The notes below the pieces were generated by a model that saw only the letters and a program-made list of their open reading frames with translations, was not told where the DNA came from and made no database searches. This document shows positions 29,604-63,815 of a stretch of 64,000 nucleotides of DNA, piece after piece. This DNA comes from a virus (lineage: Duplodnaviria > Caudoviricetes). Where the stretch lies: positions 1 through 64,000 of IMG/VR virus record IMGVR_UViG_3300026549_000056. One strand, 5' to 3'. Numbering within the stretch: the stretch's first letter is position 1; each line of letters starts with the position of its first letter. The position numbers and the translations under genes were made by a program.

Positions 29604-30158
29604 TCAGATTTTTTCTTTGAGCTTGGATTTATATTTCTTATGCAATTCTTTCTGATCCTAGTTAATTACAGTTAAATCAAAAGCAACAGATTTCAAATGA
29701 ATAAGGTGTCTTTCTGCATTTTTTATTTCTTCGTCTACATCACAGATATACTACTTAATAAAAAATGCGGCGGCCGCGTCTCCAAGTGACATTAGATCTT
29801 GATAAGCCTTCGTATAAACCTAGCGACTACGTTTCTACCACTTTACCCAAAAGCTAAGACTCTATTTAACTGCGGCAGCCTTGCTCTAAGGATCTACCTA
29901 TTCTCGTGTGGCACTATACATAGACTACGGTATAACATCAATTTTGGCGGGTGCCGCATGTAAAATCTTCCCGCAGTGATTAATATAATAGCTTTCAAGC
30001 TTTCTATATGCACATATTTCCTATTGAAAGTGATATTCTTGACATTTCTTATAGCCATGAAGATTTAGAAAATCATAATAATTAGCCAAGTCCTCATGCA
30101 TCATTAATCCTTGAAGTTGTCTTTCTGCTATTGATTTAAAAACTTCTTCTACTGTCAT
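29604..30158 (-). CDS. ferritin-like four-helix protein with 9 in-frame TAG codons
   Basis: continuous 184-codon frame; MHEDLANYYDFL...HFQ*E...KW*K...DVDEE. Confidence 0.65.
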
Positions 30159-30370
30159 TGTTCAAGTCTCTCCAATCTTTGTAAAATTTGTTGTAGCATA
30201 GCGTTTTGTTTATCTAAGTCTAACTATAATTGACTAACTATAGCACTTTGTTTTTGGTTCAGTTCTTCTATCACATCATCAGAAGTAGACTGCTCTAAAT
30301 TTTCTTTATAGTTGACAAGAGTAAGAGCAACGCTTAAAATTGTTAGAAAGTCTAAATATTTATCATTCAT
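30155..30370 (-). CDS. small coiled-coil protein (one TAG)
   Basis: ATGA-coupled to its neighbour. Confidence 0.55.
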
Positions 30371-30783
30371 TAACAAATTTTAGTAACTACAACATCAATA
30401 GCATCATATGTTGCAGGTTCTCCCGCGTTAATGATATTTACATTAGTCGGAGCTGCACATACGTTACAGGGGCAATTATTATGACCTACTTGAACAAGAG
30501 TGGTAAAACTTAACGGGTATATTGTTGAAGTATCTGCGGCGGTCGCTGTGGAAACGCTATTAGGTTGCAGCACGTCGTCTTTTTGAAGCTGGATTGTGAT
30601 ATCTCCAGCGGTTTCCGCATTTGCAGATGCAGAAACGCAGACTTCATATATACCACATTTATTGAATTGAAGTGTAGCAGTCCCTTGCTTTTCTACCGTA
30701 GCTCCTTTTAAGAGAGCTACATTATTAAGCGGAATTGGTGTATTCGCTGCTACAGTGATATTTCTACTATATGTTTCAATCAT
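30370..30783 (-). CDS. beta-rich hypothetical protein
   Basis: AGGAG RBS; part of the 29.6-32.2 kb cassette. Confidence 0.65.
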   Translation of the reverse strand: MIETYSRNITVAANTPIPLNNVALLKGATVEKQGTATLQFNKCGIYEVCVSASANAETAGDITIQLQKDDVLQPNSVSTATAADTSTIYPLSFTTLVQVGHNNCPCNVCAAPTNVNIINAGEPATYDAIDVVVTKIC

Positions 30784-30885
30784 TTTCTTCTCCTATTGCG
30801 GCAGCCCTACCAAATCTAGTATTTTATGGTTAGTTTTTTACCAGATTTAGTGACCTGCCGCGCTCATCTACATGGTCTATTAGGA

Positions 30886-31584
30886 TTACATATTTGCGGC
30901 GGCGCAGCCACATCCACAGAAAGGATTAACCCCTGCAAAATATGTGGATGCAGATGGATAACGTACCACACCAGCGACTGCATTTTGAAGCTGTAAAGCG
31001 TTCACTTGCTGTTGTAGATCAGCAATTCTGTTACCCTGAATTGCATCAAGAATCTTTTGAGTCTGTGCAGTAGTGTTTTCATTGATGCTTGCAGTATTAA
31101 GGGCAGCTTCATATCTATTTTGCTGAATTGCATTAGTAATGCCTGCGCCCTGTTGTGCAATCTGCATCTTTGTATCACAGCAGCACTGGTTCTGATTTGC
31201 CAGTGCATTAGCCTGACCAACAGCAAGACCAGCCACATCTCTCTGAAGCTCGGAATATTTATCAGAAAGTGCGTTTACGGTGTCGTGGAAAGTCTGGTTT
31301 GTTGCAGCAATAGACTGAGCTGTCCCGCTATTGACTGCGGCGAGAATTTCTCTCTCATTAGCCATTGTATTCTGGTTATCAAAGCCTCTCTGAACTTCAT
31401 TAGAGGTTGCAAGGTTCTCATAACCAATTGCATTTGCGAAGTTATTATTACCCCAGCCTCCGAAGCCGCCACCTGCGAGAAGTAGTAATGCGAAAACCCA
31501 GAAGAATCCGCTATCTCCACCCCACATACTATCTTTATTACCATTGAGTAATGCAATATCGGCAGCACTTAAATTTGTATCCAT
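30886..31584 (-). CDS. Gly-rich TM + coiled-coil protein of a conserved gut-phage cassette
   Basis: GGGFGGWG, QCCCDTK, TQKILD, GCGC motifs. Confidence 0.7.
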   Translation of the reverse strand: MDTNLSAADIALLNGNKDSMWGGDSGFFWVFALLLLAGGGFGGWGNNNFANAIGYENLATSNEVQRGFDNQNTMANEREILAAVNSGTAQSIAATNQTFHDTVNALSDKYSELQRDVAGLAVGQANALANQNQCCCDTKMQIAQQGAGITNAIQQNRYEAALNTASINENTTAQTQKILDAIQGNRIADLQQQVNALQLQNAVAGVVRYPSASTYFAGVNPFCGCGCAAANM

Positions 31585-31585
31585 A

Positions 31586-32473: not shown

Positions 32474-32486
32474 ACTTTACTCCTTA

Positions 32487-35449: not shown

Positions 35450-35761
35450 TCAGCATCCTACAATATTGATAATTGTACTCTAGGGTGCGTCTTTATTAAA
35501 CACGATTGAACTAATATATAATCCTTGGTCAGATTCATACATACAACTACGCCCCATCTGTATTGTAGCAGTATTAGTCGGCCCAGTTATGACAAAAGAA
35601 AAACCCTATTCACCCTTACTAAGAGGTAGCCAATCTCTCGTGTCAATAGAGATACCAATTCTTACTTTTCCTGCCCCGCCAGCTTTATCGAGAAGACTTG
35701 CGATTGCATTTTCTCCAGCTTTGAAAGGGCCTTTAACTTGATATATCGCAGCCTATTTCAT
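35450..35761 (-). CDS. tail-module protein (TAG read-through)
   Basis: continuous frame only if TAG is sense; IQMGRSCMYE. Confidence 0.55.
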
Positions 35762-38169
35762 TAGTCTTCCCTCGTACTTACTATAAACCAGTATCCATTC
35801 ACATTTAAGTTATTATTCTACTTGTCTGGCGGAACAGCGTTGCTACCTTCCTTGGGCTAGCTAACAAGTAGTGTCCAATTAGGACTAATGCTCTTAGCTT
35901 TTAGGTTTTGTAGTTCATACCATGTGTTCTTACGATAGTCATAAGCGTAAGTTGTAATCTGATCACTTGCATCTTTAATTGTCGCAAGCCAGCCCGCCCT
36001 ATCTGCCATTCGAGGCACTTCTTTACCTGTTGTGTCTTTGTCAAAACCGTAAGGATATTCAGTCTGTAACTGTTTTAGTGAATCAAAACTACTAAAAACA
36101 TGATTACTCTGATAAGCTGCACCAAGATTAATCCAATATAAATTACCTTCGCCATCATCATTACCAGTCGTATTAGTATATTCTGGAATATCATAAAGAG
36201 TGTTCTTCAAAGCATAATCAGAACCAGCTTTATATAGCTTCTTACGAACATCTGGGTCAGAATATAATACAATAATATTATCTCCATACAACTGAATAGA
36301 AGCAATATTATTTAAAGGCAGTTTATTGAATGTATCACTCTGCTTAACTCCATTAACTTTATTATTGTAATTGACTTTTAAATACTTATTAGAATCAAGT
36401 CTACCTTCATTAGTAATTTCAACAGATTCAATAGTCCTCATGAGGGCTAATTCTGTAGAAGTACCATCGTTATAATAAGCAGTTACGATCTTAGTATCGG
36501 GATCACATTCAATTCTATCAACAAACTTGAATTGCTCGTCAATCCACTGAATATCACGACCTTCGTCATCTGTAGTAGGATAAATTTCTTGCCCACTAGC
36601 GTTGATAGAAAAGTCTTTATCAATTACTACATTACCTTGATTATCATGTTTAAACGTATTATAGACAATTCTAATCTTGTCAACCACATGAGATTTACCA
36701 TTGCTATCAACCCATGGCGTATCTACATAGTCTATACGTAAGATACCTGGTGCAGTACCAAGATATACCTGGGCCGCCCCATCAGAATATTTTACATAGA
36801 ATCTACCAGTATTTTCATCATAGATGATATCATCAACAACTCTAATAGCAACAGTCTCATTATCACCATGAGTAAAGTGAACCGTAATTAAATTAGGAGT
36901 GACAATCTCATCATTTACAACCTGCCAAATAACAGTGCCATCTAAAACTGTATTATATCCTGGCGCTATTGTCTTACTCTCAAGACCAGTCAATTCTGCA
37001 CTACCAGTAATACCACTTTGAGTACATTGTAGACATAATCCATTTCCTAGACCGTCAGCAGTTACTCGCTGCCCGACACCATATGTAGTATTTCTAGTAA
37101 CTTTATTTAGCACATTTAGTCCGCGCCCATTATCTGTGATCTTATGGATGGCTCTATTATAGCCATCAATATAAGTCTTAGTGGTCTCGCCCTCTGCGCT
37201 CTTTTCATAGTTCCTAGTAACATAATAATACTGATAATTATGATCACTTTGATCTACATCATTACCATCATTTAAAGTCTTACCAGTTAACTCAAGACCA
37301 AATTTCTCTAGATCTTGACCTCTTACTCCTTTTGGTACTTTAACATCATACTGCCAATAGTAAGGATGAGTTTTAGAAATATCATCTTCCTTAATTAAAT
37401 TAGTATACTTCCAAACCTTTTCAGTTTCATCATAAGCGGCATAACCAGTGTCATAAGGTTCAATACTTTCAGCATGATATTTAAATACATTAGACGGAAT
37501 ATCAACAGAAATAGTAACTCCTGTAATATTTCCATCCTTATCTTTTACATTTACATAACCATACTTAATAACATCAACAATCTCAGACTCTTTAACATTA
37601 CCATTCTCATCAAACGTGGCGGCGGCGATCGGTTTAATATCTGAGCTAGCTTTCTTGCCGTCTCCTGCCTCGTACTCTTTCAGAAATGTTTTCCAATCAA
37701 CTACAGATAATTCGGTCGCCACGCCCTGTGGTCCAACTATCTGGCCAACATATTCAGCACCGCCGCCAGGATTAGTAACAAACTCATTAAATGCAAGTCT
37801 AAACTTATTTGCGTTAAATACTTTATTAGTATTTCCGTCTTTATCAGTAGTAATGTCGTAATATCTTTCAACACCGCTACTATCTTTATCATTCTTTTCT
37901 ATTGAATAGTCACTATTGACATTCAAATTATTAGGATTGAAAGGTTCAAGATAATTCAATCCTCTTCGGTAAATAATACCATTCTAAGGGCTATTATAGT
38001 GATTCTTATTGGCTATTGTATCAATAATAACATACTCACCATAGTTTACAGTATTATAACTACCACCCTTCTGGAAGGCATCGACCATTTCCTTGATACT
38101 ATCGTAGTGTGCGACTAGTCTATAAGTGGTACCTGGCTTGCCACCATACATACTATATTGAAGTGCCAT
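35761..38169 (-). CDS. large tail/baseplate protein (802 aa with TAG read-through)
   Basis: track ORFs 37984-38169 and 35857-37959 share a frame, separated only by TAG. Confidence 0.7.
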
Positions 38170-38530: not shown

Positions 38531-39301
38531 TTAGGCTTCATCCCACGCATAATCTAGAATGAACTGATCTATATTACTAGCTGATGATCCATTCGGATTA
38601 GCAAAACCTACAAATGTAATTGGAACGCCATTATTAATTTCCCACGTTCCTGTCCTACCTATTCTAATTGGTTCTCTATTAACACAAATTAATGATCCAG
38701 GTCTACTTTGAATACCAATTTTATCCACAGATGATCTAGGTAAGATATTATTAACAATCGCAATGTCGCCATTTTCTCCAAAATCAATATTGGCCCTAAT
38801 ATCATCACGCGGCACCGCCTCTAGATAATCATAAGTTGTTCTACTAAGAATAAATCCAAGATAAGGATAAATTGCATTAGAAGTGAACATAGTTTCAAAA
38901 GAAAAGTATTCTGTATTAACTCCAGGAATATAAGGTTCAACTGCGATACTATTTTCAATAATTTGATAAGTACCTCTCTCATATTCGCCATTAGAACTAG
39001 ACCCATCATGCTTAAGAAGCTCTAACTTAATAACCATTTCTCTTGGATCGTTGCTATCTTTAGTCATTGGATAAGTAGTAGCACTAAACCTAGGATCGTT
39101 ATATGGAATTCGTTTAATAGAAAATCTTAAATAATAAGTATTATTAGTATTAAAATTGCCATTATTACTTAATCTAATGGCATAATCTTCAAATAACTTT
39201 ACCGCATATCCTTCTGTCTTTACTGTCGTAGCAGACCAAGACAGATCAGTTAGATATGAAGTTGTATTGTTCTTCCTTAATTGGCCTATCTTATATGACA
39301 T
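38531..39301 (-). CDS. baseplate/tail protein
   Basis: KIGIQSRPGSLICVNREPIRIGRTG motif; position in tail module. Confidence 0.65.
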   Translation of the reverse strand: MSYKIGQLRKNNTTSYLTDLSWSATTVKTEGYAVKLFEDYAIRLSNNGNFNTNNTYYLRFSIKRIPYNDPRFSATTYPMTKDSNDPREMVIKLELLKHDGSSSNGEYERGTYQIIENSIAVEPYIPGVNTEYFSFETMFTSNAIYPYLGFILSRTTYDYLEAVPRDDIRANIDFGENGDIAIVNNILPRSSVDKIGIQSRPGSLICVNREPIRIGRTGTWEINNGVPITFVGFANPNGSSASNIDQFILDYAWDEA

Positions 39302-39321: not shown

Positions 39322-41430
39322 TTAAATCTTCTGCTTGCATTGATATGCTGATATATTCATGCTAGACTCAACGTCAAGTGGCAACGAAATACTAGAAATC
39401 ATAAACTAGCCATTAATTCCGGCAGCATCATCGCGGACAGTTATTCTAGTATTTGGCTCAAGATAATAGATAGGAATCGCGCTAATTGTAATAGACTGAT
39501 TCATATTCGTATATTGATATAACATATCACAAATACGTTCATAACAAGAATTCTGACTGCCACCGATAGTCAATAGACTATAGATAGTGGAGTCAACCTG
39601 TACCCAATCTTGTCCTGCTGCATCACACTCTCTCTTTTCCTATTGTATATCTGCTTCATTTTGATTAATATCAATGAATACTAAATCTGGCACTTCCTGT
39701 TCAAATACACAATTAATCTAGTCCTATTGTACAACTACACCGCGGCGCCCAATATTATCAACACTGTATTCACCGACTTCAGCAGTATCATCAATCATAT
39801 CAAGCCAAAAATCTATACCACTTGGATTTTCCTTTACACTATCATAGAATTGCTGTGTTTTTAAATTAAATAGCTTAGGCCATTCATTTAATAACTCAGC
39901 AAAATAATAAGGTTGGTCAGTACCAGTATCTTGAGCTTCGATCCCCTCATAGTAGAGTTCCTATCTCCAATCTACTGTTGTGACCATACAATCGTCTTGT
40001 TTAACTTGATAATATCCTCTATCCTTGCTCCACCTATAAAATTGTCTATTATCTAAATTGCCAACAATATATAAAGTAGCTTCTGCTCCTGGATTAGGAA
40101 ACTCAGATGTACTGTTGTAGGTGAACGTAAACTCGGCGCCCGCCCTTGTAATTCCATAATTGTCCTCGTAAAAATTCACATAGTGTTCTTGTCCTATTTC
40201 AGGTTTATGGTCAATAGCAAGGTGATAGCGAACAGGTATTTCAGTCTCACCATCTGCGCTTTTTCTTACACCCCATACCATATAATCGTTTTTGACATTA
40301 CTATATGCAGGGGCATTTGTAACAGCACTAATTAACTTAGTTCCTTCAAAAGTGTAGACTGACTTACCACTTGAAAAGTCAACATCATAACTAGGACTTT
40401 CATTTAATTTATTCATTACTGTTGTGGTATAAGTAGTATTTAGATAGTTTTTGATCTCTTGAAAATGAAAATTGCCATAGACATCATAAAAATATTCAAA
40501 ATTACCTAATACAGCAATAATTTTATCAAGCACGCTTGTGACTGTATCTCCAGGATTGCATGTTAATTCTCCTGGATAGACAAAATCGGTGAGAACAAAA
40601 CCTATATCATCACCATATTCAAAAGTGACTATATCTGATTCATCCTGACCAGTGGCGGCGGCCGCGTTAAGTGCTTCGGTTTGATCTAGGAAGAACCGAC
40701 GTGTTGTAACTGTTCCCCCTGTCGTCTCTAAGTAATAGATAGGATTACTACCAGTATATTTCATAACTTGTTTAATTTTATCATCAATATCTTCGATGAC
40801 AATCTTCGCCGCGTCCTCCGCCCCAAAGTGATTAACAAGCTAGAAAATAATCTGACTAATTAAAGGCTTCTAAATATCGCCATTACTATCTTCTTTTTCT
40901 GAGAAAGTGACTGAGGCAGGAATGACTCCACCTGCATCTCCATTTAATAAGCACATTTTATCTTTTAGCGAGATAGAAATAGTTACACCTTGTTGCACTT
41001 GATGTGAAATACTTGGATCAAAGATTACAAATATTCCAAGTGGAAACCATATAATATCTCCATACAACTCTTTATAATTGACATAATGATGAGTAATCTC
41101 GTGAGTCTTCTCATCTCTTGTATCATACATATAAGTAGGCACAGTATTTCTAAAACCGATCTCTAGTTTTACTTTTCTATTGATAGACAAATCCTGGTCA
41201 ATATGGCTAAGATCATTCTCCTTCTATTCTGCGAACATAGTAAAACTTGCAGTTCTACGCACAGAAGAAGTACCATCTAGGGTAAGCGAACCAGATATAG
41301 CTTTCCCTTGTATTTCTGATACAGCTTCCTCAGTCCAAGATAAAACAGTTAGACGAACAAACTGTTCTTTTAATCTAAGTTCGTCTAACTGTTTGAGGAA
41401 ATACTGATCCTTTAAAAAATCATAGGTCAT
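39322..41430 (-). CDS. baseplate hub/Tal-like protein (702 aa with TAG read-through)
   Basis: three track ORFs plus unlisted segments in one frame; GNFEYFYDVYGNFHFQEIKNY. Confidence 0.7.
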
Positions 41431-44189: not shown

Positions 44190-44780
44190 TCAATCATGAG
44201 CCGCGCCATTCATTCTCTTCATAAACTATTTCTAATCAATAACTTCCCAATCAGCCATAGCAGGAACCACCTTCGAGTGAATGAATGAATTTCCCCCTGC
44301 ATCTTCATAGACTGTAATCAATTCTTTAAGGATCTCTTCTTCATTCTATGTAATAAATGGCAGACCATTATTAATTTTAGCTCGCTGCATATAAGTTTTA
44401 TAAGCGTGCTAAATCCGGTCTTTCAAATCAGCTATATCTTTAGACTTTTGATAATCTGAGAGTTTCTGCTGACCTACTTGAAGTCCTTTAATAGATTCAT
44501 TAACATTTTCAATCTTACTAATGATCTATTTATCTCTGTCTTCGAGAGCATCAAAATGTTCTTTATAAATTTTCTTATTCTATTCACTAGTTTGCTGAAG
44601 AGTTTTTATTGCATCAGAATTATCTTTTGTTTCCTGCTTAGTCTCTTCATACTCGTTTCTAGTCTTTCTATATTTCTAAGCCCACTTGTAAACAGTTACA
44701 GCAGCTAAGATGATGGCAACTATCCATCCTAGAACAGTTCCTGCGGAAACTGAGCCTAATAGTGTAATTAAACCCTACAT
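44190..44780 (-). CDS. holin-like membrane protein (several TAG)
   Basis: N-terminal TM segment, coiled coil, YEDAGGNSFIHS; second codon is TAG. Confidence 0.6.
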
Positions 44781-48100: not shown

Positions 48101-49307
48101 TATTCTCTATGTCTATTGCTGCAGACAGAGTAGTCTTATCATATACAGCGACACACTTAAATGTGTTAATTGCGGCAGGCACCATAGAATAGATTAAATC
48201 TTTCCGCTATGACTCTGGGATAAACTGAGTTACTCCATTATAAGTTTTAGACTGATTTAAACATCTCCAACCTTCGCCCGCATAATTAGAGAACTTAGTT
48301 GAGTCTGTTGACTTTACTGTTGTATCTTTTATAAACCAGTAAAAATCAACATGCTGAGTATCATAATTAACTTTTCTACCCTTGATTTTCATTTCTGCAT
48401 ACATGTACTTTTGGTCATCATTTGCAGATGTTAGATAGGCGCCACGCGGGGTAAGGATCTTTAAAGATGAGCCATTAAGTTCTTCATCCGTCAGAGGCTC
48501 CATAAATTCTAACTAGAAATCAGAGAGGAATATATCTGCTGGCTATCCGCTCTTTGTAACTGGGAAACCAGTACAGAATACTTGAATATCAGATATCTCT
48601 TTTAAGTTATCTCCATCTATTGAAAAGATAGCATATTGACGATTCTTGAGTGTATATTTATAAGGCTGCCCTTGCATATTATTTACGTCAAGAACATATG
48701 TTCTGGTGACGAGATCTGCATCAGATTGCACATCTTGACTCTTATAGGCTGTATTATAGTATTTTGCTTGAACAATTAAGCCATAATTACCACCAGAAAC
48801 CTGCTGCTCGGTAGGAAGAGCAGTTCTTACATTCATCCCAAGAAGAATATATTTTCTCTATTTTTTATAAGTAGACAGAGCTACAGAGTCTACAGCTATA
48901 ATATTTTTAATACTTCTCTGTTGTTGTCCACTATATGAACATAACTATACTGCCTAGGTACTGTTGAATATATTACTACCTATAGTGGTCATCTTCCCCT
49001 AGGCGGTTACAGCATCTATATACTTAGTACCCAGCTATTTTACAGATCCTACAATTAGCTTTATCTTCTTGTAATCGCTAGAAGGAATCTATACATAAAC
49101 TTGATCATCTGTATCATAGGACGCATCTGAATCCGCTGAAAAAGCATCGAAAATGGAGTTCTGATATCTAACTCTATATTTTCCTATACTCTAGTCTATT
49201 ATAGATACAATAGTAGCTCTAACTGTCTTATCGAAATCCAACTGTGAAACACGTTTATTCAGAAGGATCTCAATAGAATCAAGGATTGATTGCTATATCT
49301 TTGACAT
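45111..49307 (-). CDS. large tail spike/central fibre protein (1398 aa with TAG read-through)
   Basis: AAGGAG RBS; seven track ORFs in one frame; GxIGGW repeats. Confidence 0.75.
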
Positions 49308-49501
49308 TTTTACTCCTTCTTGGCGGCGCCCGCTATTCCGAGCGATACAGTAAGACATAAGTATCACCGACCTCGGCCGCCGCGCCTCTTTATAACATTA
49401 ACTACTATAATAACTAGAATTTTTGATAAAGTAGATTATTTTATTTAGACCGTAGATATAAAAAATATGAGGAGCAATTAAGCTCCCCATAAATAAACTA
49501 A

Positions 49502-52500
49502 TCAATAAGTACGTCTGTTTCCAGCGGCTCTTTGACTAGCGGCATTAACGAGATTGTTGAAGGCTTTCTCGATTTCCTGACTAGATGAAACATTCGGGAA
49601 GGTAGCACTAATCTCGACTTTTTGCTGAACACTATTATCTGCATTTCTATTGTTATTAGTAAGAATATTACTAATTTCACGACCTGCAATTAAGTTATTC
49701 AGTATATTGCTTCCTAAACCAGCTACACTACTAATGATGCCACTTGCAATTTTAACGGCTGCAAGTGTATTTTTAGTATCTTTCTGATTAAGAACTAGCT
49801 CTTTTTGATGCAAGAAAGCTAACTTACCAGATTTATCATTCCACTCACCAGTATAACCACCAGTATCCATCTTAACTACTTGGTATCTAGTCTGATAACC
49901 TTCAAATTCTGTCTGTGCTTTACCACCATTGAAGTATTTATCCAAACGAGATTCTGCATAATTCTTACTAGTCGTACCAGTACGATCAGAGTTCATCAAA
50001 TCTGCATCTCTCGTAGTCTCCCAGTGGCCACTCTTATTAGTCTGTTGGACGATCTTATATCTAGCTTGCTCTGTAGGCTTAGATGGAGTAGAAGAAGGTT
50101 CTCTTCCGTTATTTCTACTTCTACTTCCAGTGCTACCACTAGCGTTATTATTTCCCCTATTTGTGGTAGTTTTAGCTGGCTCAGAATGTGAAGTATCTAT
50201 ATTACCGCCACCATAATAATGTTGACCGCCGCTGTATACATCACCAATTGTACGACCTTGTACAGCCGCCCAATACTTCAAAGCTGCGTTGGCCGCGTCT
50301 ATAGCTGCTGCTTCTGCATTACCGTATTGACTAACCAAACCTTTAATAGCCTGATATACTGAATTAACTGCGTTGACTTCATTATTATAGCTATCAACCA
50401 ATGTATCATTATCTTGGATGAGTGCTTGTGTATAACCAATTGTAGTATCAATTCCATTAACTACGTTTTGGAAACTAATACCTGCTGCCTATTGTACTGC
50501 ATCTAGACTCTGAATATAAGTTCCATTAGCGTCAATCATAGCTTGCATGCAAGGGATAATCACTTCTCCTGTCATAGCTATATAGTTTTCAGCCATGTCA
50601 CCTATAGCAGTATTCCAAGAAGGATCCAAACCAGTATCCTTACCAAATAGTAAGTCCTGATTTGCTTCAGTCATGAGATTAAAATTCTTTAAATAAGTAT
50701 CATTAATAAAAGCGTCGAATAAAGTGGGGATTGCACCACCCTCGCCAATAAGAGCTTGGATACTAGCCCATACTGCTTGATCGTTCTCATCATCGCCATT
50801 TAAACCTAAGAAGGCTTGTAGCTCATCGCCCATCTCAGTTAATAGATTACCAAACTCAACACCAGTAAGATTAATTAACTCAGACTGCATGTTATGGTAG
50901 TCTTGACCAAGAACCGTAATATAACCATCATCGCCAAAATACTCTTCTTGCAGTTCAAGTAGCTTCTCTTGCAGAGTTTCTTGATCGTCATAATAAGTCT
51001 GGCTTAACTCTTGAGCCTTCTCAAAGAAATCCTATAATTTATCTTGCACCTCATCAATAGTATCAGATACATCTTTTTTTGCGAGTTGCCTTAACTCTTC
51101 TATAGAATCTCTTAGATCAGTTTGTGCAGATTGTGTCTGATCTTCATCTGCGACATACTGATAGGTATAATTGCCTTGACTATCACGGCGTAATCTCATT
51201 TGAGTTTTTGCGTTCTGTATATCTTCAAGTACGATTTGCTTCTGTAATACTTCTAACTTTTTATTAGCGATGTCTAGATCAATTTGTCTTAAATTAGCAA
51301 TACTATTTAGATCATTAACCTCTTTATCCAAGAAATCAGATAACTGCTTTTGAACACGAGGTGACTGATTATTCATGGCATTATTGACATTATCAACGAA
51401 GTCTAATACTCCAGTGGCGCGACTCGCTTTATCTAGATAGCGACTATCATTCCACTTAGCTTTATCCCATTCGTCCATAGCTTTTTGCCAGTCGCCGCCC
51501 ATTAATTGATCTTTAGTAGTTCTAACAATCTTTGTGATTGTATTGTTATACTTATCAATCAAATTCTGAACAGCATCTTCGACAGCACTATTTAAGTTGC
51601 TGAGCGAATCCATCCAGTTATCTCTGAACTTCTTCCATTCTTCAGTTCCAACTTCAGCAGCATCCATCTGCTGCTTCCACATATCAGTCTACTTGCGATA
51701 GAATTCAAGCTCTTGATTATTATACTTTTCTCTTAAATTATAGTATTTATCAAGCTAATCTTCATTATTAACAGGTTTTAATAATTGAACAAGATTAATA
51801 TCATGCTCAAGGATATCACTCATTTGATCATAAGCATCAGCTTGATCATCATAAGCATCCTTTAACTTGTCAATAGTATCAAGAACTAGATCATGGATAT
51901 CTTTCAGAATCTACTGTGAATCTTCAAGATTCTGCATAAGATCATCAGTATATTTCTTTAGATCTTCAAGAGCCTGCTCCTCATTGTTACCATAGACATC
52001 ACTCCAGCCAGTGTTTTCAATAGACTCTAGTTCTGCTTTAGTTTTATTAACATGATCTGTTAGCTGTTGGATAATACCATTACCATTCTCGTCATAGTAA
52101 CTAAAGAAATCTTGCATCCTCGCTTTAGCTTGACCAAGGTAATCATTATCCTTAATCTTATCAATAACCTACTTCTTAAACTTATTCCAATCTCGTTTAG
52201 CGTCTGCGATATCAAGATCAGTATCAATCTGAATCTTGAACTTCTCAATCTTCAGCTCTTGTTCTTTATCGACAATGTCTTGAACTTTATCATAAGTATC
52301 TTGAAGAGTGTCCTGAAGCTTTTCATAAGAATCCATTGCCGCTTTAAGATTCTCATATCTTTGCTTCGCGGCCTCCGCTTGTTTGAGAATAACGTCTTGC
52401 GCTTCCGCGTCAGCTATACCAGCAGCTTCTCTTAACAAGTTATTATACTCGTTCTGGAACTGGATAGCTAAATTGGTATAGTTAATGATATTGCCTTGAG

Positions 52501-55500
52501 CATCAAACTGAACTTCATATCCAGCTAACATTGACTTTAGGTTAGTTTGCTGTTGAGCAAGATCTTTCTGCATTAAATCAATCTTGTTTTCATACAAAGC
52601 TTTCTCTTTTTCAAGAGCTTCAACCTAATTATCAATAGATTGCTCTCTACCTTTACGAATAGATTTATCAGTTAATTTATCTAAACGATCAATCTAATCA
52701 TTAATATCTTTCAGGCTACGATCAATTTCATGATATTTATCAATATCAGAGTCTTTAATGAGATTTTTTAGAACTTCAGTTTCTGTCTTAGGCTTCTTAG
52801 AACGACCTTTACTACCGCCACCTTTTTTAGACTTCTTAGTCTTGCTAGGTGTATAGGATTCTCCATTGGCGACATTGGTAATGCCTTCTGCAACACCATT
52901 TGCGGTAGCACCAAGGATTTGAAGATTATCTCTCTCTTTAGCAATACTCTTATCAATTTCATTAGCTGCTTTAGTAGCTGCATCAGCAATAGCCTGATAG
53001 CCTTCTTGAACATTCTCAAATTGATTAACATAGTCATCAATAGCAGAGCCAGAATCAAGATTACTAAGATCAGCACTACTTGAACTTGTTTGTCCTGCTG
53101 TAGTTTTTGATCCTTGATAGGTTGAACTAATAGTCACACCCTTAGCATCCTTGCCATGCTTAGAATATTCGCCAGTTTCCATTGCCTGATGCGCAGCTGC
53201 CATTGCTTGACCAGCTTTGTTAGCACTATCAATAGCAGAATTAGCCCATGCAGCAACTGAAACTGAAGCTGATGATGCAGATGAAGCTGCATTTGATGCA
53301 ATAGCACTGAATTTCTAATCGGCATCTGAAGCGACCTTTTGATGATCTGTCATCTACATATTAGATGCCATCTGAGAATCATCAATTCTGACTTGCTTTA
53401 CAGCATTGGAAATTGCTTCTTTAGCTTTACCAGCTTGGCCTTCAGTATTGACCTAACTAGAAGCCATTGTCTGTGCGGCCGCCGCTATGGCACGATACTG
53501 CTCTTCCTTATCCTCCATCAGAGCAATGTTTTGTTCAATACGGGCTGCTACGCTTTGTGCATTGGCTGAAGTTTCTGCGGTCGCCGCACCGATAGCATTA
53601 TTAACAATGTCTTGATTTAACCGATAACTGCCATCAGATACTTCCTGCATCCCTTGCAAAATACCAGGAAATGCATCGCTAAGAGTCGAAAGATCTTTTG
53701 CAGCAACAACAAAGTTGTCACCAATTTTACTTGCCGCACCTGCGATAGTATCAAACTTACTCTGAACGTCACCAATGGCTTCATCCATGTTAGTTTGAAT
53801 ATTGACATCAATTTCATGCTCTGCATCGAGATAGTCATCAAAGTTCTGTTCAAAGCGTTCTACGGCTTCATCGCTGATATCAACCTTAATAGTGGCACCT
53901 AGGGACTCCATGCCAGTCATATCTTCAATGAATTTATCAGCAGCATCTTGTGCAGCTTGTAAAGTATTCTCAAACTGAGCTTCTGAAATGGCGTCCTCAA
54001 TTTCCTTTACGGCATCAGCATATGCACTAGCAGAAACGGCGCCGCCACTCATCTTCTCACTTACGATATCTATTGAACGAGCGAGATCTGGATACTGCTC
54101 TCCTAATAGAGCTAACTCAGAAGATAATGCCTCGGTATTATCATCAGTCAGCTTAGTTCCTTTGGTAAGCTTATTAATAGCATCCTCAGCAGCTTTCGCA
54201 CCTATGTCAATCTGCTTTATTAGTTCAGCGGGATCAAGCTTCTCTTGGGCCTCATCTGCCGCATCTTCCACTTTCATTAATTCAGTAGGGATCTTGTCAA
54301 GATCAGTAACAAGAGTTTCTAATGAAATGCCTAACGAATCTGAAATAGCCTTTAAGGTTTCAAACTTATCAGAGCCAATGAGATTCTAAAGCTTACTTGT
54401 ATCAAGGCCTTGCCCCTACTTGACAAGATCAGCAATTGAATCTTTAACACTATCTATCTAATCTTTATTTAATCCAACACTTTGCCAAGCAGAGGAAACT
54501 CTATCTTCAAGCTGTCCAGAATCTTTATAATACTGCTCGATAACACCTTCAAGTTTAGAAATCAGTTCATTGTCTTGAGTAGCAAGCGCCGCAGGTAAAG
54601 CATCTTGAGCCTGAGACATCTTAGCAGCTTCATCTTTTATAACCTGCTAATAATTGCCTTCCCACTCATCAATTTCTGCTTGAATATCTTTTGGGATCTA
54701 TCCGTCATTAGCGGCCTAAACAGCTCTTTTATAGGCTTCTTCACTTTTTTTATCGAATTGATCTATAAAAAGTAAGCTTTCAGTCTCGCCATTAGCTGTC
54801 CCTACCGCTTTTGCAGCATCAACATCTTGATCATGATAGTTGACATTACGGTCGGCCATATCAAAGCTACCAGATTTAAACGCGGTTCTAGTATCTTTGT
54901 TAGTCTATTCAGCCTTTAATTCATTTAGACGCTTTTGGTTATCAATCTCTGCTTTTAATTCTTCGTTTTGAGCCTTTAAATTAGCTAATTCTTGAGCATC
55001 GGTTAAAGTAATGGTACCTTGGTCTTGAATCTATTTAATTTTATCCTGAATATCTGTTAATTGATTATTCAATGATTCAAGATCATCCTGCCCTTGACTA
55101 TATTCTTTAATGCTATCCTCTAAAGCTTCTTTAGCTTCTTGAGCAGAGACATGCATCTAATCAACAACTTTAATGACAACTGGAATCGCCGCTGAAATAG
55201 CACCAACTAAAACTCCAATTGGGCCTAACGCTGCATATAGACTAGCAAAGCCGCTAATTACCATTGGTAAGCTCATTGCCGCAGAGGACAAGAATTGAGT
55301 AATTCTTTCTCCAGCTGTTAATGATTCGTCTCCAAGATTCGCAATCATATTTGTAAGATTGGAAACACCCATTGTGACTGTACCAAGAGACGAAATGGTA
55401 TTGGTAACTTTCTGAATCTAGGCAGTCCTTTCAGCTTGAGCACGATTCTCTTTTATAGCTTCTGTAACAGCTTTTACAGCATTTGCATACTTTTGCCATT

Positions 55501-57706
55501 CTTGTGCAGTATTGCCATAATTCTCACTTGCAGTAGAAGCATCATTGATAACTCCAATTAGGTTAAATAAATCACCTTGAACTGTTGCAATTTGAGCATC
55601 TGAAATCTGGCCTGTCGCGCTAACCTCAACTTTGATTTTTTGAATATCATTAAGCAAAGTCTGTAATGGAGCAAATTCCGCAGGATTAGCAAAATTCTTA
55701 GCTAAATCATTAGCAATATTATCTAATACAACAAAACGTTGGTTATTATCACCAGTATTAGAAATTTGATCTAAAGTAGTACGAATCAAGTCGAAAGACT
55801 TCTGAACTCTTTCAACATCAGCTTGCCATTTCTATGTTGCAGCTTCTGATTTTAATTCACCTTCATTAATACCAGATAATGCTTTAGCACAATTATCAAT
55901 TGTATTTAACTGTGCTCTTAACTCTTGAGCTTTTTGTGCTTCGGTACCAAGTTGTTTAAGCAACTCATTGTGATAATTTTGTTGCTCTTGAGTCATTAAA
56001 CGATAAACTGGCAAGGTCTACTGTTGCTGATCAACCATTGCTTTTACAGCTTCATTGTTCTGAATTCCCGCAGTGCCTGCTAGAGCCTTCGCAGTTGCTT
56101 GGGCCTGAGCAATAATATTTTTATCACTAAAAGTATTTTGAATATTCGTTGCAATATTACTAATCTAAGTAGCAATATTTTTACTAAAAACTCTGGTTAA
56201 AATAGCACCAAAACTAAGAAGCGCGTTACCGCCACCACCAATAGCATCAACTAATTGAGTAAATATATTTAAAAAATTGGTTCCTATATCAACCAATCCC
56301 TTAAAGCTATCTGTATCAGAAAACGCCTGGATGAATCCTTCTTGCGCAGCTGTTAATTCATTCAAATGAGCTTTTAATGAATCCATATAGATATCATTTT
56401 TCTCATTTAACTCATTATTAGCTGAAAGAGAAGTATTTAATTCTTTTGTATAAGTATTCCAGTTATCGAATAACGCAATTAAGTTATTCATCTGGCGCTG
56501 GCCAGCCATTGTCTGAGCAAGATAAATCTGTTGCTCTCTTGTCATTGACCCCCATTTTTCACCAATTTCGGTCATGACATCACCAGTATCTCTTAGTTCA
56601 CCATTAGCATCAAGAACATCAATGCCAAGCTTTGCCATCTTACCAGTGTAATTACCAAGAGAAACTTCTGCATCATCTGTACCAGCTTTAATATCATTAA
56701 TACGGGCATAGATAGTCTTTAAAGCATTACCAGTTGTCTCAGGAGCCTGCCTTGTTACCTGAGTAATTGTGGCAATCTGAGCAGCTAACTGGTCAATGGT
56801 AACGCCCATATTGTTAGCGATAGATGCAGACTTAGACATCGCAGTAGCCAATTCAGACATATCAGATGCAGATGTATCTGCCACAGCCGCTAACTTAGAA
56901 ACAGCCTACTCAGTGTCTTGAGCCTGAATCTTGAAGCCGTTCCACACAGCGGTAAGATCATTTGCCATATCCGCAACGTCTGCTCCAGTGATGTTGGCGG
57001 CTTTTAATGTCGCTTCAGTACGAGCTTCTCTATCTGATGCTCCTAAACCTTGCTGAGCAAATGTTAAATAAGCATTTGTATATTCTTTGGTTTGACGACC
57101 TAATGCGGCAGCTGCGCTATTTGCAGACTCAGCAAACTTATCCATCTGCTCTCTAGAATCACCAGTAACAACTCTAATATCTGTTAAAGACGCATCTAGA
57201 ACTTTTACATAATTATAAGCACTTTGAATTGCACTTGTAAAACCATTAATGACACTTGAAGAAATGTTCCACTTGACAGTATTAATAAGTGTTTCTCCCA
57301 TCTTGTCAAGAATGGTCTGAGTGTTTTTAAGAGTAGTGTTTGTAGTTAAAATTTCAGCTGATAGCTTCGTAAAAGCCCGCTGACCAACATCCCCTACCTG
57401 AGAAAAATCTTTATAGATTTGTTCAAGAGTAAGTCCAGAGTTAGCTAGTTCAGTATTAAACTTTGTAATATTAACAGTATTCAGCTTTGGGTTAAATGCT
57501 TTTGTTAAAGCTTCTTCAACCTTACCTGCCGTATTCTATATTTCTGTTAATCTTGCCCTAGCATCTGTTATAGACTTAGCATCTATAATACTGCTAGGCT
57601 TGGTTGCGTAAATCTGGTCGATAGCTTTTTTAAGGTCATTTAGTTCAGACTTATCAACATTAAATCCAACGCCAAAGTTGATTTGTCCACCATTTCCTTT
57701 AGCCAT
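49502..57706 (-). CDS. tape measure protein (2734 aa with TAG read-through)
   Basis: AAGGAGG RBS; twelve track ORFs all in frame with ATG 57706; TP901-type core (GNALKTIYARI, AGQRQ); C-terminal DTGGYTG...LAFLHQKELVLN. Confidence 0.9.
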
Positions 57707-58447: not shown

Positions 58448-59789
58448 ATTTATTTCTCCTTTTGCCTCTTGAACTAATTATATTATATATAAAAATTCTA
58501 GGAATGTCAAATTGTAATTTTAACTTCGCTTGGGACCTATTCTAATGCTGCTCGTTCAACAATATTTCTTAAACCTTTTCTTCCGCTCATCTTAACAGGG
58601 TCTTTATACTGTTTCTTTAAAGACATCTATTTTAGTTCTTCCGCAGTTTTAATTTTATTATTAAGAATCTGAGTAGCTAGAGTAATCATTTGTCTAAAGC
58701 CAGGCAGGGAAGCATCTAAGGACTTTACTGCATAATCATATTCATCTGTTGATACATCAGATGTATATAGACCAGAGATACTATCAACATTTGCAACACC
58801 TTCTCGGATAAAATAATCCATATTTCTATTGTATAATTTTCCCAGAAACAACGTATTTGGATTCTATCCCTAACCGCCGCCGGTATAAAAGAAATAAGCA
58901 TAAGCTTCAGAGATATCGCCTTCTGCGCCACCAACAGTAAGCTTATACCAGATATCTTCAGTAGTTATTTTCCAGAATACGTGTGGTTTCCATTTTCTGT
59001 ACTCTTCCAAGGTTACATCATAGGCCTCATTTAATCCCTATAAAGACTCTGCTCCAATAATTGAATCTTTCCTAATAGCATTACTCAAGTTAGCTTTAAT
59101 TTTATCTACATCAAATTTTAAACGAGCAGATAATCTAGGCACTTTACCAGATGCAATATCAGATTTAATAGCAATACCAGTATCACCTTTAAACATTTCT
59201 TCAATTGGAATATCCATGATAATTGGCCCATCGCCTGAGTCTGGAATAGCAACACTAAGTCTGGTCTAGTGTCCAGTAATTACCTATAGAATACGACTAT
59301 TAAAAAGCATAGAAGCTTGATAAAAATCATCAAGTTGATACTACGATAGCTCCTTATACTGAATCTATTGCTTATACTACTGATAAGCCTAAACAATACT
59401 TGGATCTTTTTTATTTTTAGAATATCCAATAGCTTGTCTCTTTTGTTTTAGCAATTTGGCATTTTGTTCAATCTATTGAATTTGCTTTAAATTCTTTTGT
59501 ACAACTTTAATATAATCTAAAGCAATCTTTTTCAATAGCAAAGAGCAGTCATCACCGAGGGCTTTAAGCTATTCAGCACTCCTATCTCCTATAGCTTCAC
59601 TGATCCGCTATAAAGCCTCATCTGAGATATTTATGGAAAGCTTCGAAGCTGCCATAATAATAACCCCCTTATGTAAATCTAATAAAATTTATTTTATAAT
59701 ATAAATATAGAAAAAGTATACAAAAGCTTTCTTTGTAAGGCCGTTCCTGTTCGCGGGAATATGATTCCGAGCAGAGAAAGTGCAACAAT

Positions 59790-60247: not shown

Positions 60248-61321
60248 TTAGTCATTTACAACGTGGACTTTTTTACCTGCTTCGTCGACTTCATCCTTGA
60301 ACATACCTGCATTAGAAGCACCATCGAAGATATCGTTATAAACGCTCTCTTCATCATGCTCATGTCCCTCAGTATGAGGCATTACAGGCTCACCACGAGA
60401 AGCACTCTTTGTAGCATCCTCAACAATCTGAAGTACGCAAAGAACTTTCTTGGTCTTGTCAAAATATGTATAACCAGGGAATGCATCCATAGTAAACGTA
60501 AATGTACTAGGATCACCTGTGCCAGCCATTGTAATAGTAAAGTTAGACTGAATTTTAACATTCGGGAATGTTAAGTTAGCAGGCATATCTTTACCATCGC
60601 TCTGACGTCTGAACAGTGTATCAGCTTCAACATAATAGAAGCCAGCAAACATATCAGCAGTAAGATCAGCTTCATAAACCTGCTTGCCAGGAAGATCAAT
60701 ATAATAATCAACCATTACGTTTCTATTCTTAGCTTCAGTAAATCCGCTAATCACACTCTTGAATGTATATTGATCATTGTTAATAGAAGCCGTTCCATTA
60801 GCAACCTCTCCTTTGCTATCGGTGGACATATAAATCTTACCATTCAAAGAACCATCATCTTCGATACCCATAACATAAAGTGGAGCATCCTGTAAGCAGA
60901 TCTCAGCTTTACCTGTCTTAGCAGCTTCATCAACACCGAACTCAGCAAGAGCTTCAGTCAGGTCGATTGTACCATCTGCCTTAACAGTAGTCATGGTTGT
61001 CATGTGATAGTGAACCTTATCTGTTGAATCAGCAGCTTTTCTAAACAGACCTGCACCAGAAAGAATAGCAAAACCGATAGGTGAAAGAAGAGCATCCTCA
61101 ACTGTGAATGTTAAGGTCTTGTCACCTTCCCATGCGATCAGTCTTGGGTTGCCACGGCCGCCCTGTGCATATACTGAAGTAGTTGCTTGTTCAATAGAAG
61201 AGGTTGTTGCGGTATCAATATAAAGGACTGGCTGACCGACATGGAATGTGGTACTGCCAATCTGAGTTTCCTGCTTCGCGCGGAAAACGATATTTGCACA
61301 CTCGCGAATACCAAACTTCAT
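60248..61321 (-). CDS. major tail tube protein
   Basis: YAQGGRGNPRLIAWEG, GDPSTFTFTMDA; position; no TAG in 357 codons. Confidence 0.75.
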   Translation of the reverse strand: MKFGIRECANIVFRAKQETQIGSTTFHVGQPVLYIDTATTSSIEQATTSVYAQGGRGNPRLIAWEGDKTLTFTVEDALLSPIGFAILSGAGLFRKAADSTDKVHYHMTTMTTVKADGTIDLTEALAEFGVDEAAKTGKAEICLQDAPLYVMGIEDDGSLNGKIYMSTDSKGEVANGTASINNDQYTFKSVISGFTEAKNRNVMVDYYIDLPGKQVYEADLTADMFAGFYYVEADTLFRRQSDGKDMPANLTFPNVKIQSNFTITMAGTGDPSTFTFTMDAFPGYTYFDKTKKVLCVLQIVEDATKSASRGEPVMPHTEGHEHDEESVYNDIFDGASNAGMFKDEVDEAGKKVHVVND

Positions 61322-61340
61322 AGGTATTTTCCTCCTTAAA

Positions 61341-62108
61341 TTATTCTGAATCCGAATGAATATCTTTCATCCAGTTTTCAACTTCTTTGAGATCCTTAGC
61401 TCCAGCCATTTTTGCTTGAACATAGATATCTGATTCTTGCTTCAAGCAGAATCGCTAGAACTCATCAAATAATTGATAAACACTATATCCTAGTAAAGAA
61501 TTCATGTCTTTTTTTTCCCCTACAGCTAAAATTGAAATATATCGAGTTAAGATTGCTACTTTTTGTCCTTCTCCGCCCTGTTTCTTCATCTAAGCTAGCT
61601 TTTCATGATATTTTCTAAATTGCTATGCTAATCTTTCTGCTCTCTTGTCTCCTGGGTTATAATCTGTGCTGCTTTTAAAAAGACTCTTTAAGCAGAACAT
61701 CTGACTAAGAATACTCTGAAAAGCATCAAAATTTTCTTTAGTAATCTGGGATGCAGAAACACCTTTATCAGTTTGTTTTATCAGTATAATAGAATTAGGA
61801 GCAAAAGAAACTCGATAATCGGGGAACATAAGTAAAAGAACCATCTCTGCACAAGCTTTATTCTTTTGCACTACAGGATTAGGTTCCTTTATTATCGACA
61901 TTAATATATCAAAATTCGTTGCTTCACCTAAACGATTTTTGTCCTCAGAAGTTAGACTCTCTTTAGAAAGATTTAAGAACTGACACCCAATGAAAAATGA
62001 CTCTTCTCCAATGTATCCTATCTACTTTATTGAGGGCTGATGTACAACTAACTTGGCTTCTGTAAATGGTATGTCATTTTTTGACAATAGAAGTAAGTCA
62101 TTAAGCAT
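61341..62108 (-). CDS. conserved tail/neck protein (TAG read-through)
   Basis: continuous frame HQPSIK*IG...AKMAGAKDLKEVENW. Confidence 0.6.
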
Positions 62109-62724
62109 TTATTTTACCTAAATCCTCAGTAAAGTGAATCCCTCTATAAGAAAGAGTATACATTGAAATATCTTCGTTCAATACAGATAACTGACAACCT
62201 AAAAATTGATACTCACCAAAACCAGACATTTTAATATTATTTCCAGCAGAACCAAAATTAGCTTTATTCTTATTAGTACAGCTATTTAGTATTCCATCAA
62301 TATATCCACAAATCTTCAGCGGCCGCACCTGATAATCTTCTAGACACCATTCGTCCATATAACAAATGACATCAAAATTAATTGTGCAGTCCCTAAACTC
62401 TGGATTTTTACTTGGCGAGAAATTATCAAAAGATACAAGAATGTATGATCTGATATTATCAAACGTACCCCGTGCAATTTTTGGGTTCAGTCTTACATAC
62501 CCTTCATCTATCAATTGTCCTAGTGACTTATTGTCAACCATCTGTTGATATTCCTAATTACTTTTATCCAGACAATCTGGTTTATTAATAATCAAAAGCC
62601 TCTTTAGCATGTCACTATATGGGGCTGACTCAACAAATAATGACTTTAAAATCGTCTAAGTATCTTTTTCACATGATAGAAAAGAAGAATGTAAAGGCTA
62701 TAGCTTTATTAAATCTTTTCTCAT
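62101..62724 (-). CDS. tail-completion-like protein (TAG read-through)
   Basis: AAGGAG RBS; SSFLSCEKDT*TIL...RPLKICGYIDGIL. Confidence 0.6.
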
Positions 62725-62744
62725 GTTAACTCCTTTTATCTCAA

Positions 62745-63815
62745 TTATAGCGACTTAATTGTAATATGCTTAGTTATGTCGCCATACTTTATATCAAAAC
62801 CCTTTTTATAGGATTTACTTGTTTCCACATTTATAACAAGAGTATCTCCATCAATAGTATAAGAGATATATTTGTTCAAAGTTTCACCTGCGGCGGCCGC
62901 GGTCAGTTGTAACTTCCAGGTGCCGTCTGCCGCGTTCTTAACTACATATTTGATATTACGATCATATGGTGATAACACATCAGGACCTATAATAACCGCA
63001 TCTTGAGTTTGTTGTTCTTGTTTCATTTCTTTAATCTGCGTATCAGTATCAGTATAAGTCTCTTTTAAAGCTACTCTAATAATACCAGTATCTTTATTAC
63101 TTGAACTAGATCCATAATTATCATTAAAAGCCTGTACTTCCCAAGGCTGACCATTAATTTTAACTCTATCAAACCTCTTAAAGAATGCTTCTGTTGTCGA
63201 ATCTTTTGTAATATAAAGTTCTTTAGTATAATTTAGATCATTCCAAATTACGCCTTTCTTTACATTCCAAAATATACTAGTTTCATCTGGACCTGTTGTC
63301 CAACCATGATAAACCTGTTCAGTTTCAGTCCCATCATCTTCAACTTTAATAATAACAATCTAGTCATCAGCTTTACGAATCTAACCTCTAAAATAAGCTG
63401 TTTCTTCTGAATATTGTAGATAAACAATCCAATATGAATCTGGCGTCCATTCTGCTTTATTTCCATGTATCCACTTAAAAGTAGTCCCTGGAGTGAATCC
63501 AGTCTCTAACCAATCTTTATTGTCTTTAACGGGATCAATACTAACACTATTTTCCTCAAAAGGAATAGAGATTAATTTATCTTCATAATCAACTTTAAGT
63601 TTATCATGATTAATTAAACATCTGAAATATGGACTTGTCTGATTATTGCCCTAGCTTGCAATATATTTTTGTACAATTGCCGCCTGATAAGAATAATATA
63701 ACGCACCTTTCATGCTACGCAGTTTATCTTGCCTCATTCTAGTCCATTGATCGGCTGAACTAGCATCTCCTCGGAAGGCAACCCGAGCTTTCATTCTATC
63801 ATAGCTACTTGACAT
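62745..63815 (-). CDS. head-closure/adaptor-like protein (TAG read-through)
   Basis: single frame from ATG 63815 to TAA 62745 across TAGs. Confidence 0.6.

Follow-up and report, generated by a model that had tools for sequence, protein, structure and literature searches.

Which amino acid does the TAG codon encode in the late genes of the phage considered here? The stretch analysed, below called the window, comprises the initial 64 kb (64,000 nucleotides) of the IMG/VR record IMGVR_UViG_3300026549_000056, a single contig of 99,929 bp with 36.7% G+C. The whole record is denoted G000, and its positions above 64,000 (67810, 69463, 70338 and those at 72–73 kb) lie outside the window. The late region of the minus strand is fragmented when translated with table 11, and readthrough of TAG yields long open reading frames (ORFs). 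Positions 29604–63815 contain 117 in-frame TAGs in 16 long minus-strand ORFs, all of which terminate at TAA or TGA, confirming the original prediction that TAG is a sense codon in the late genes. TAA terminates 48 of the 79 tallied ORFs, and there are about 170–200 in-frame TAGs in the whole record. The original prediction further proposed that TAG is read as Glu rather than as Gln, the latter being the assignment of code 15. Comparative evidence strongly supports this proposal, and TAG very probably stands for Glu, not Gln, in this phage.

Each TAG was translated as X, which scores equally against all residues, and the ORFs were compared with the DNA of the relatives by tblastn; DNA-level subjects allow the codon of the subject to be checked. 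Likelihoods were computed for all 20 amino acids using a substitution table measured on the same alignments, in the manner of Codetta. Since the relatives are not independent, in a separate site-level test each conserved column (at least five subjects, at least 70% agreement) was counted once. Protein-database homologs were rejected as a test: near-identical entries show Gln at each TAG, having been called with code 15, and tblastn at the DNA level was used instead. These database proteins, 94–99% identical to those of the phage, have Gln at every TAG and are marked 'with_TAG=Q', because the caller used code table 15, and not because of the data.

With the first eight IMG/VR loci, the partners of TAG were Glu (107), Gln (34) and Asp (30), and with five whole relatives the log-likelihood was −683.5 for Glu and −893.6 for Gln. 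The complete set of 89 loci, to which Enterococcus phage EF1 and Clostridium phage D-1873 belong, yields 2153 cells opposite TAG, of which 948 are Glu, 183 Asp, 172 Lys and 111 Gln. The corresponding log-likelihoods (context of at least 4) are −2112.6 for Glu, −3373.6 for Asp and −3526.6 for Gln. Twelve conserved TAG columns are Glu, one is Asp and none is Gln, while the true Gln codons of the phage fall on Gln in 71 of 92 conserved columns and on Glu in two of 92. The original prediction had named TAG columns dominated by Gln as the outcome that would speak against it; neither the cells nor the columns are of this kind. The site-level log-likelihood is −4.8 for Glu versus −50.1 for Gln. The ranking is the same for the subjects that look standard-code (Glu −1155, Asp −1732, Gln −1831) and for the genes inside 29604–63815 (Glu −883, Gln −1115).

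As a control, the same pipeline was applied to the gut phage phAss-1, for which TAG=Gln was assigned by its authors, who found tRNA-Sup-CTA genes (PMC10607447). Gln is recovered, with log-likelihood −436 (the runner-up residue has −507) and Gln in 198 of 451 cells. Hence tabulation of the homologous residues opposite TAG, proposed as a check by the original prediction and run at the DNA level, gives Glu here and Gln in the control.

The amino acid composition agrees with this assignment. In the regions aligned to standard-code orthologs, G000 has 5137 Glu and 846 TAG, in total 5983, versus 6162 Glu in the orthologs. Gln is found 3634 times in G000 versus 3361 in the orthologs, and adding TAG to it gives 4480, an overshoot of about 1100 residues. 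In these alignments, the late proteins are short of Glu by about as many residues as there are TAGs.

The late ORFs to which the individual sites belong are as follows.

29604–30158, minus strand: ferritin-fold protein of 184 amino acids with nine TAGs, assigned by predicted structure and alignment
35761–38169, minus strand: late ORF of 802 amino acids with three TAGs
39322–41430, minus strand: tail protein (phrog_1887/32343) of 702 amino acids with eight TAGs
41446–44148, minus strand: late ORF of 900 amino acids with 14 TAGs; the homolog in the related genome G003 has 22 TAGs
44190–44825, minus strand: ORF of 211 amino acids with nine TAGs and no aligned relatives
45111–49358, minus strand: late ORF of 1415 amino acids with 16 TAGs; hypervariable, its TAG columns being uninformative
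49502–57706, minus strand: late ORF of 2734 amino acids, tape-measure-sized, with 26 TAGs, mostly in poorly conserved columns where Glu is the commonest partner
58507–59655, minus strand: late ORF of 382 amino acids with 14 TAGs
61341–62108, minus strand: YomV-like virion protein (precomputed Pfam YomV_2nd) with four TAGs
62101–62724, minus strand: YomW-like virion protein with three TAGs
62745–63815, minus strand: late ORF of 356 amino acids with three TAGs

In the YomV-like protein, the TAG at 62022–62024 is opposite an invariant Glu (33 of 33 relatives), and in the YomW-like protein the TAG at 62656–62658 is opposite Glu in 27 of 39. Two TAGs of the 62745–63815 ORF, 63381 and 63360, face Glu in 34 of 41 and 11 of 14 relatives, respectively. 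In the tail protein, positions 40840 and 41224 are Glu (5/5 and 3/3), and 39406 is Asp (6/6). Relatives of the 41446–44148 ORF have Glu at 43543 and 43474. Two columns beyond the window, at 69463 (71/71) and 70338 (61/61), are invariant Glu, and the one at 67810 is Glu in 75 of 77.

Every TAG context quoted in the original prediction that we looked for is present, and positions 39961, 37984, 29835, 6620, 44775 and 17271 are exact. Most contexts (the asterisk standing for TAG) read as Glu, as had been claimed: PSIK*IG (33 of 33 relatives), CEKDT*TIL (27 of 39), FRG*IRK (34 of 41), ADD*IV (18), RLA*QF (21), IIF*LVNH (5 of 5) and NSP*N at 37984 (3 of 3). The column of VDWR*ELY (39961) is split between Glu in four relatives and Asn in two, and GING*FMI is acidic as expected, but the residue is Asp (six relatives), not Glu. 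SL*ARIARLEE has no aligned relative and came without a position. The context M*GLITLL (44775) had been taken for an N-terminus; it starts with an internal Met, amino acid 16 of the ORF call, and no relatives are aligned. ISR*AAI (17271), cited as a counter-example where Gln is usual, relies on one relative with Gln.

For the protein encoded at 29604–30158, the original prediction assumed a ferritin-like fold with two TAGs at positions of carboxylate ligands. The AlphaFold2 (AF2) model has a predicted local distance difference test (pLDDT) score of 92.1, and Foldseek matches it to archaeal and bacterial ferritins with probability 1.0 and template modelling (TM) scores of 0.74–0.77. Hence the assignment to ferritin-like four-helix bundles holds for the predicted structure. 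The TAG of KW*K (29835) is opposite Glu in four of five homologs. In HFQ*E the conserved Glu is the residue directly after TAG, and the TAG column itself is variable (Lys, His, Cys, Thr, Glu).

Two early genes, 1066–1971 and 6119–6700, have a single TAG, 10 and 25 codons ahead of the next stop, respectively, and are otherwise TAG-free. The context GTIV*TPLG at 6620, which had been listed among the Glu sites, is present, and is positioned 25 codons before the next stop of the otherwise TAG-free second gene, where TAG is maybe a true stop. The single TAGs of both genes may still be stops, in which case the codon would have two meanings over the infection time.

The assignment is not limited to one phage. 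When relatives were collected by means of the portal-like protein, each of the 29 other TAG-recoded loci obtained gave Glu. One of the relatives, G014 (IMGVR_UViG_3300021399_000006), is rated complete, its 142,127 bp having direct terminal repeats. The portal-like protein of G014, 60% identical, contains 11 TAGs; in the whole genome 445 TAGs are in frame, and Glu fills 50 of the 57 conserved TAG columns. By the alignments, the whole clade behaves alike, with about 30 relatives also using TAG as Glu. Genes for glutamyl- and glutaminyl-tRNA synthetases (GluRS, GlnRS) and release factors were sought in G000, G003 and G014, and none is encoded there. In the G002 homolog of the 41446–44148 ORF (66573–68297, L012) there are three in-frame TAAs within the match; this could mean several genes or another recoding.

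What tRNA could decode TAG? ARAGORN and Rfam report 22 to 25 tRNAs and a transfer-messenger RNA (tmRNA) in the window, and none of the tRNAs has a CUA anticodon. The genes relevant here are the following.

12196–12333, plus strand: Glu-type tRNA gene with a 62-nucleotide structured insert (about 12231–12292) in the anticodon loop, found by ARAGORN with introns allowed
8581–8654, plus strand: phage tRNA-Glu(UUC), its D arm nearly as in the interrupted gene
8399–8475, plus strand: phage tRNA-Glu(CUC)
14475–14625, plus strand: phage tRNA-Gln(UUG) and tRNA-Gln(CUG), both with short D loops, the CUG one with U1–A72

The anticodon stem of the interrupted gene, ACGGU/ACCGU, encloses 69 nucleotides instead of seven. 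The insert, located between anticodon-loop positions 34 and 35, folds into a stem closing three hairpins, that is, a four-way junction. Its removal in silico gives the loop CUCUAAA with the anticodon CUA, and a cut shifted by one nucleotide gives CUUUAAA with UUA. The remainder is a clean cloverleaf with C1–G72, A73, an encoded CCA, a 4-nucleotide variable loop, and a D arm formed by a 3-bp stem and the 11-nucleotide loop AAGCGGUCUAA. This 19-nucleotide D arm is identical to that of bona fide phage tRNA-Glu(UUC) genes in contigs L056 and L057.

Uninterrupted tRNA(CUA) genes exist in contigs of rumen phages, where they were detected by a pattern search for a CUA loop preceded by a D arm of the Glu or Gln type. 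In three cases the gene directly follows tRNA-Glu(UUC) and tRNA-Glu(CUC), and its neighbours are homologous to genes of this phage. G014 has a single tRNA(CUA), of the Glu type, sharing with 12196–12333 the D loop, C1–G72 and the 4-nucleotide variable loop; both genes are situated just upstream of tRNA-Ser(GCU) and are syntenic. Outside the anticodon, the CUA tRNAs of the clade have identity of 0.65–0.74 to tRNA-Glu and 0.51–0.63 to tRNA-Gln. The 75-nucleotide suppressor of phAss-1 is Gln-like, with identity of 0.65 to tRNA-Gln versus 0.47 to tRNA-Glu, a UGGGG start and G73.

We give even chances to the interrupted gene being a working suppressor. It is retained in a divergent strain (Joint Genome Institute (JGI) contig L267) and in contigs from RNA runs. 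The T stem in L267 has a compensatory change of A–U to G–C, and the insert has no changes in 62 positions versus 12 in 252 positions of the spacers (P about 0.05). A stronger statement, of much higher conservation in the insert than around it, was rejected: the 88% identity is due to a replaced neighbouring tRNA, and the spacers differ by only 4.8%.

The main rival view, possible in our opinion though somewhat doubtful, retains TAG=Glu and treats 12196–12333 as a disabled or regulatory tRNA-like RNA, the actual tRNA(CUA) being in the missing part of the genome or in a co-infecting relative. There is room for it, as the CheckV completeness of the record is 64%, roughly 37 kb (about 36% of the genome) being missing, and ENA has an almost identical contig (ERZ28613550, scaffold_34) that is 137,154 bp long. 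Exact-protein search toward the missing part yielded only short contigs. The relatives use an uninterrupted gene, and no uninterrupted allele of 12196–12333 was found in IMG/VR and JGI metagenomes. Contigs from four RNA runs contain the unspliced form and no joint across 12231–12292, which by itself counts neither way, contigs being blind to rare or small RNAs. The Rfam scan of the tRNA array and the insert produced no ribozyme or intron family, and the search for relatives of the insert sequence produced only chance matches of 13–26 nucleotides; a weak Rfam hit to YrlA was dismissed as an artefact from two adjacent tRNAs. Moreover, 62 nucleotides are far too few for self-splicing group I introns of the kind known from bacterial tRNA genes. 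All this has to be balanced against the synteny with the G014 suppressor, the perfect cloverleaf with its encoded CCA, the compensatory change, the unchanged insert, and the lack of CUA among the other tRNAs of the array. In relatives, no tRNA(CUA) was found in G003, which is 89% complete and also has TAG=Glu, nor was a suppressor found in G006 and G008; the result for G003, like that of the allele search, detracts from the proposed decoding.

Given TAG=Glu, the following scheme may be suggested. The hosts are presumed to be Firmicutes, most of which have no GlnRS. In these bacteria tRNA-Glu (xUC) and tRNA-Gln (xUG) are both charged by GluRS, which therefore is lax at anticodon position 36, and the amidotransferase GatCAB then selects tRNA-Gln by U1–A72 and a short D loop. 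A phage tRNA with a tRNA-Glu body and a CUA anticodon would read UAG, being charged with Glu by the host GluRS. It would not be amidated by GatCAB, as it has C1–G72 or G1–C72 and a long Glu-type D loop. A suppressor of the Gln type in the same kind of host would then produce code 15, as in phAss-1. In G000, either the insert would be removed after transcription, or a second suppressor would be encoded in the missing 37 kb. Charging of a CUA tRNA by GluRS is an assumption and a weak point of the scheme; GluRS normally uses the anticodon bases as identity elements. The original prediction had a tRNA-Gln escaping GatCAB. The decoder seems to be of the Glu type, contrary to this, while the logic of a host without GlnRS and a tRNA without U1–A72 fits.

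A more elaborate version, which we consider rather unlikely, is an RNA-gated switch of the code, with the suppressor made as an inactive precursor due to the conserved 62-nucleotide four-way junction in its anticodon loop, and an active CUA tRNA formed only after excision and resealing. Resealing would be performed by TAG-free early enzymes, and the late TAG=Glu genes could be translated only once these had acted. The enzyme in the window that might seal the tRNA, should the insert be excised, is the following.

27939–29156, plus strand: TAG-free RNA ligase with an N-terminal oligonucleotide-binding (OB) fold and PF09414

The kinase and phosphoesterase near 72–73 kb might assist it, and resealing of a cut anticodon loop by these three enzymes is speculation.

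Several TAG-free genes resemble an RNA repair set, namely the ligase, the DUF7788/DUF2828 protein at 21163–22272 and, at 72078–73099 of G000, an AAA_33 kinase adjacent to a Metallophos phosphoesterase.

As for the amino acid itself, a mixture of Glu and Gln at TAG, caused by partial amidation by GatCAB or by two suppressors of different identity, is improbable. It would explain the exchanges of Glu and Gln at TAG among strains and the Gln of relatives at some TAG columns; moreover, the missing 36% of the genome might contain another suppressor, and phAss-1 has suppressors of two different builds. On the other hand, the presence of TAG at invariant Glu columns of several essential virion proteins argues for Glu as the main product at least, and the CUA tRNAs of the clade have no U1–A72 and a long Glu-type D loop.

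Still less probable is ordinary code 15 with TAG=Gln, as in crAss-like phages, Lak and phAss-1, the Glu signal being an alignment artefact or reflecting tolerated changes of Glu to Gln. It deserves attention because of a number of observations that do not favour Glu. All support for Glu is comparative, and many TAGs are in variable columns or hypervariable tail proteins and provide no information. TAG is not used uniformly in the late genes, several of which have none (for example, 60248–61321, 38531–39301 and 24102–26231). One conserved column, at 41602 in the 41446–44148 ORF, has Gln in three relatives. The PHROG profile scores of the Glu and Gln translations differ by at most 3 bits in either direction and do not discriminate, the score of 39322–41430 being marginally higher with Gln (183.8 bits versus 180.7). 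Strains 99.3–99.9% identical to this phage show three TAG–CAG and two TAG–TGG exchanges and no TAG–GAG exchange, which weakly favours Gln, with a rough likelihood ratio of about 4. This comparison is underpowered because only about 0.2 GAG–TAG events are expected, given 14 G–T changes in about 37 kb and 235 transitions to 39 transversions; one of the three TAG–CAG sites is acidic in every relative. Finally, public gene callers translate these genes with Gln, which, as said above, derives from their code table. Against code 15 are the conserved TAG columns, none of which is Gln while true Gln codons mostly do fall on Gln columns; the log-likelihood gap, more than 1000 nats for cells and 45 nats for sites; the recovery of Gln for phAss-1 by the same pipeline; and the composition, where Gln plus TAG exceeds the orthologs by about 1100 residues and Glu plus TAG matches them.

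It is hardly credible that the residue at TAG is a different acidic one (Asp) or a non-canonical, modified one standing in for Glu: Asp indeed ranks second among the partners, with 183 of the 2153 cells, and fills the conserved column at 39406, but it is about 1260 nats worse than Glu, its share is the same as for true Glu codons (149 conserved Glu columns and seven Asp), the suppressor body is that of tRNA-Glu, and a dedicated synthetase was not found.

Phages with code 15 (TAG=Gln) include the crAss-like phages, Lak, Agate and the phAss-1 group (Borges et al., 10.1101/2021.08.26.457843; Peters et al., PMC9523058; Babkin et al., PMC10607447). Borges et al. describe only TAG to Gln and TGA to Trp in phages whose code differs from that of the host (10.1101/2021.08.26.457843). 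A full-text literature search for phage recodings retrieved TAG=Gln, TGA=Trp, and TGA=Gly with code-25 hosts, and did not retrieve TAG=Glu. The present phage resembles the code-15 phages in that TAG is concentrated in the late, structural and lysis genes and missing from the replication genes, and in the use of TAA and TGA as stops; a large array of phage tRNA genes and a suppressor borne by phage relatives are further common features, and phAss-1 is itself distantly related. In the present phage the RNA ligase and several abundant virion proteins are likewise TAG-free. The differences are the amino acid, Glu; the tRNA-Glu build of the suppressor, with the long D loop, the 4-nucleotide variable loop and no U1–A72; and the 62-nucleotide insert in the candidate suppressor of this genome.

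The meaning TAG=Glu is shared with NCBI table 30, the nuclear code of peritrich ciliates, where both TAA and TAG are Glu. Unlike that code, TAA remains a stop in the phage, and the system is viral and bacterial, relying on a phage tRNA and affecting only a part of the genome. In their D arm the candidate suppressors agree with phage tRNA-Glu(UUC) and, like bacterial tRNA-Glu, they have no U1–A72 pair, by which GatCAB picks tRNA-Gln. They differ from bacterial tRNA-Glu in having, in this genome after removal of the insert in silico, the anticodon CUA (or UUA) and not UUC or CUC, and would presumably be charged with Glu.

If true, TAG=Glu throughout the clade would add a new natural code to those used by bacterial viruses. 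The residue assigned to a captured stop codon would depend on the host synthetase route used by the suppressor, here that of GluRS and GatCAB with no GlnRS. Translation of these phages with table 15 would place a wrong residue at roughly one in 70 positions of the late proteins, often at an invariant Glu. The database entries P0001–P0052 and P0121 and loci L064–L069 would then contain systematic Glu-to-Gln errors, contaminating homology-based inference of codes. Natural amber suppressors inserting Glu are possible tools, and in this genome there is a possible RNA-level switch of the code.

The virion module contains the SPbeta-type families YomU (tube), YomV, YomW, YonB and YonD_N, according to precomputed Pfam annotation of identical genes. 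By tblastn, the identity of the tail-tube protein is 30–37% to cultured phages of Enterococcus, Lactococcus, Bacillus and Clostridium, and 48% to phAss-1. The same YomU/YomV/YomW/YonB/YonD set is found in SPbeta-like siphoviruses (Bacillus SPbeta, Enterococcus EF1/VRE9, the Lactococcus 949 group). The cultured members use the standard code, in contrast to the rumen clade with its many TAG-recoded members. Metagenomes and metatranscriptomes of the bovine gut, produced in ten studies, contain the sequence of this phage. A scan of genome contigs yielded only phage contigs binned into rumen metagenome-assembled genomes (MAGs), with no reliable host and no cultured prophage; the bins are assigned to Lachnospiraceae, Erysipelotrichaceae, Bacilli and even Methanobrevibacter. 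The window is part of an SPbeta-like siphovirus of the cattle rumen or gut, very probably with TAG=Glu in the late genes, and with TAA and TGA as stops.

The highest TAG density in the genome is that of a GIY-YIG homing-endonuclease-like gene in the replication region outside the window (86670–87605 in G000), with 15 TAGs in 311 codons. In its alignment with I-TevI, one TAG is opposite Asp and one opposite a gap, which is not decisive.

Some other tRNA genes are also unusual. A second interrupted tRNA-like gene is located at 12765–12882; Rfam scores it at 46.8 bits with 56 nucleotides unaligned, and ARAGORN calls it Gln(CUG) with a 37-nucleotide intron. In the unrelated phage contig L055 (719–1315), a tRNA-Glu with the same D arm as the candidate decoder is split after the anticodon by a 522-nucleotide insert containing an ORF. 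Two genes of the window, at 19822–19892 and 14783–14856, have odd anticodon loops, one of eight nucleotides with the four-base call 'acca' (Rfam 30.9 bits) and another with ACA (A34); similar four-base calls (tttg, gcat) are made in G014 at 9936–10007 and 141051–141126. The slot of tRNA-Leu(UAG) beside the interrupted tRNA (11976–12052 in the window, 950–1030 in L267) differs at 48 of 85 positions, with the flanks differing by about 5%, which suggests cassette-like turnover of the tRNA array. The phage tmRNA at 10571–10916 (Rfam 114 bits) encodes the tag peptide AENIQIAA, and the tmRNA of G004 encodes ANNYALAA.

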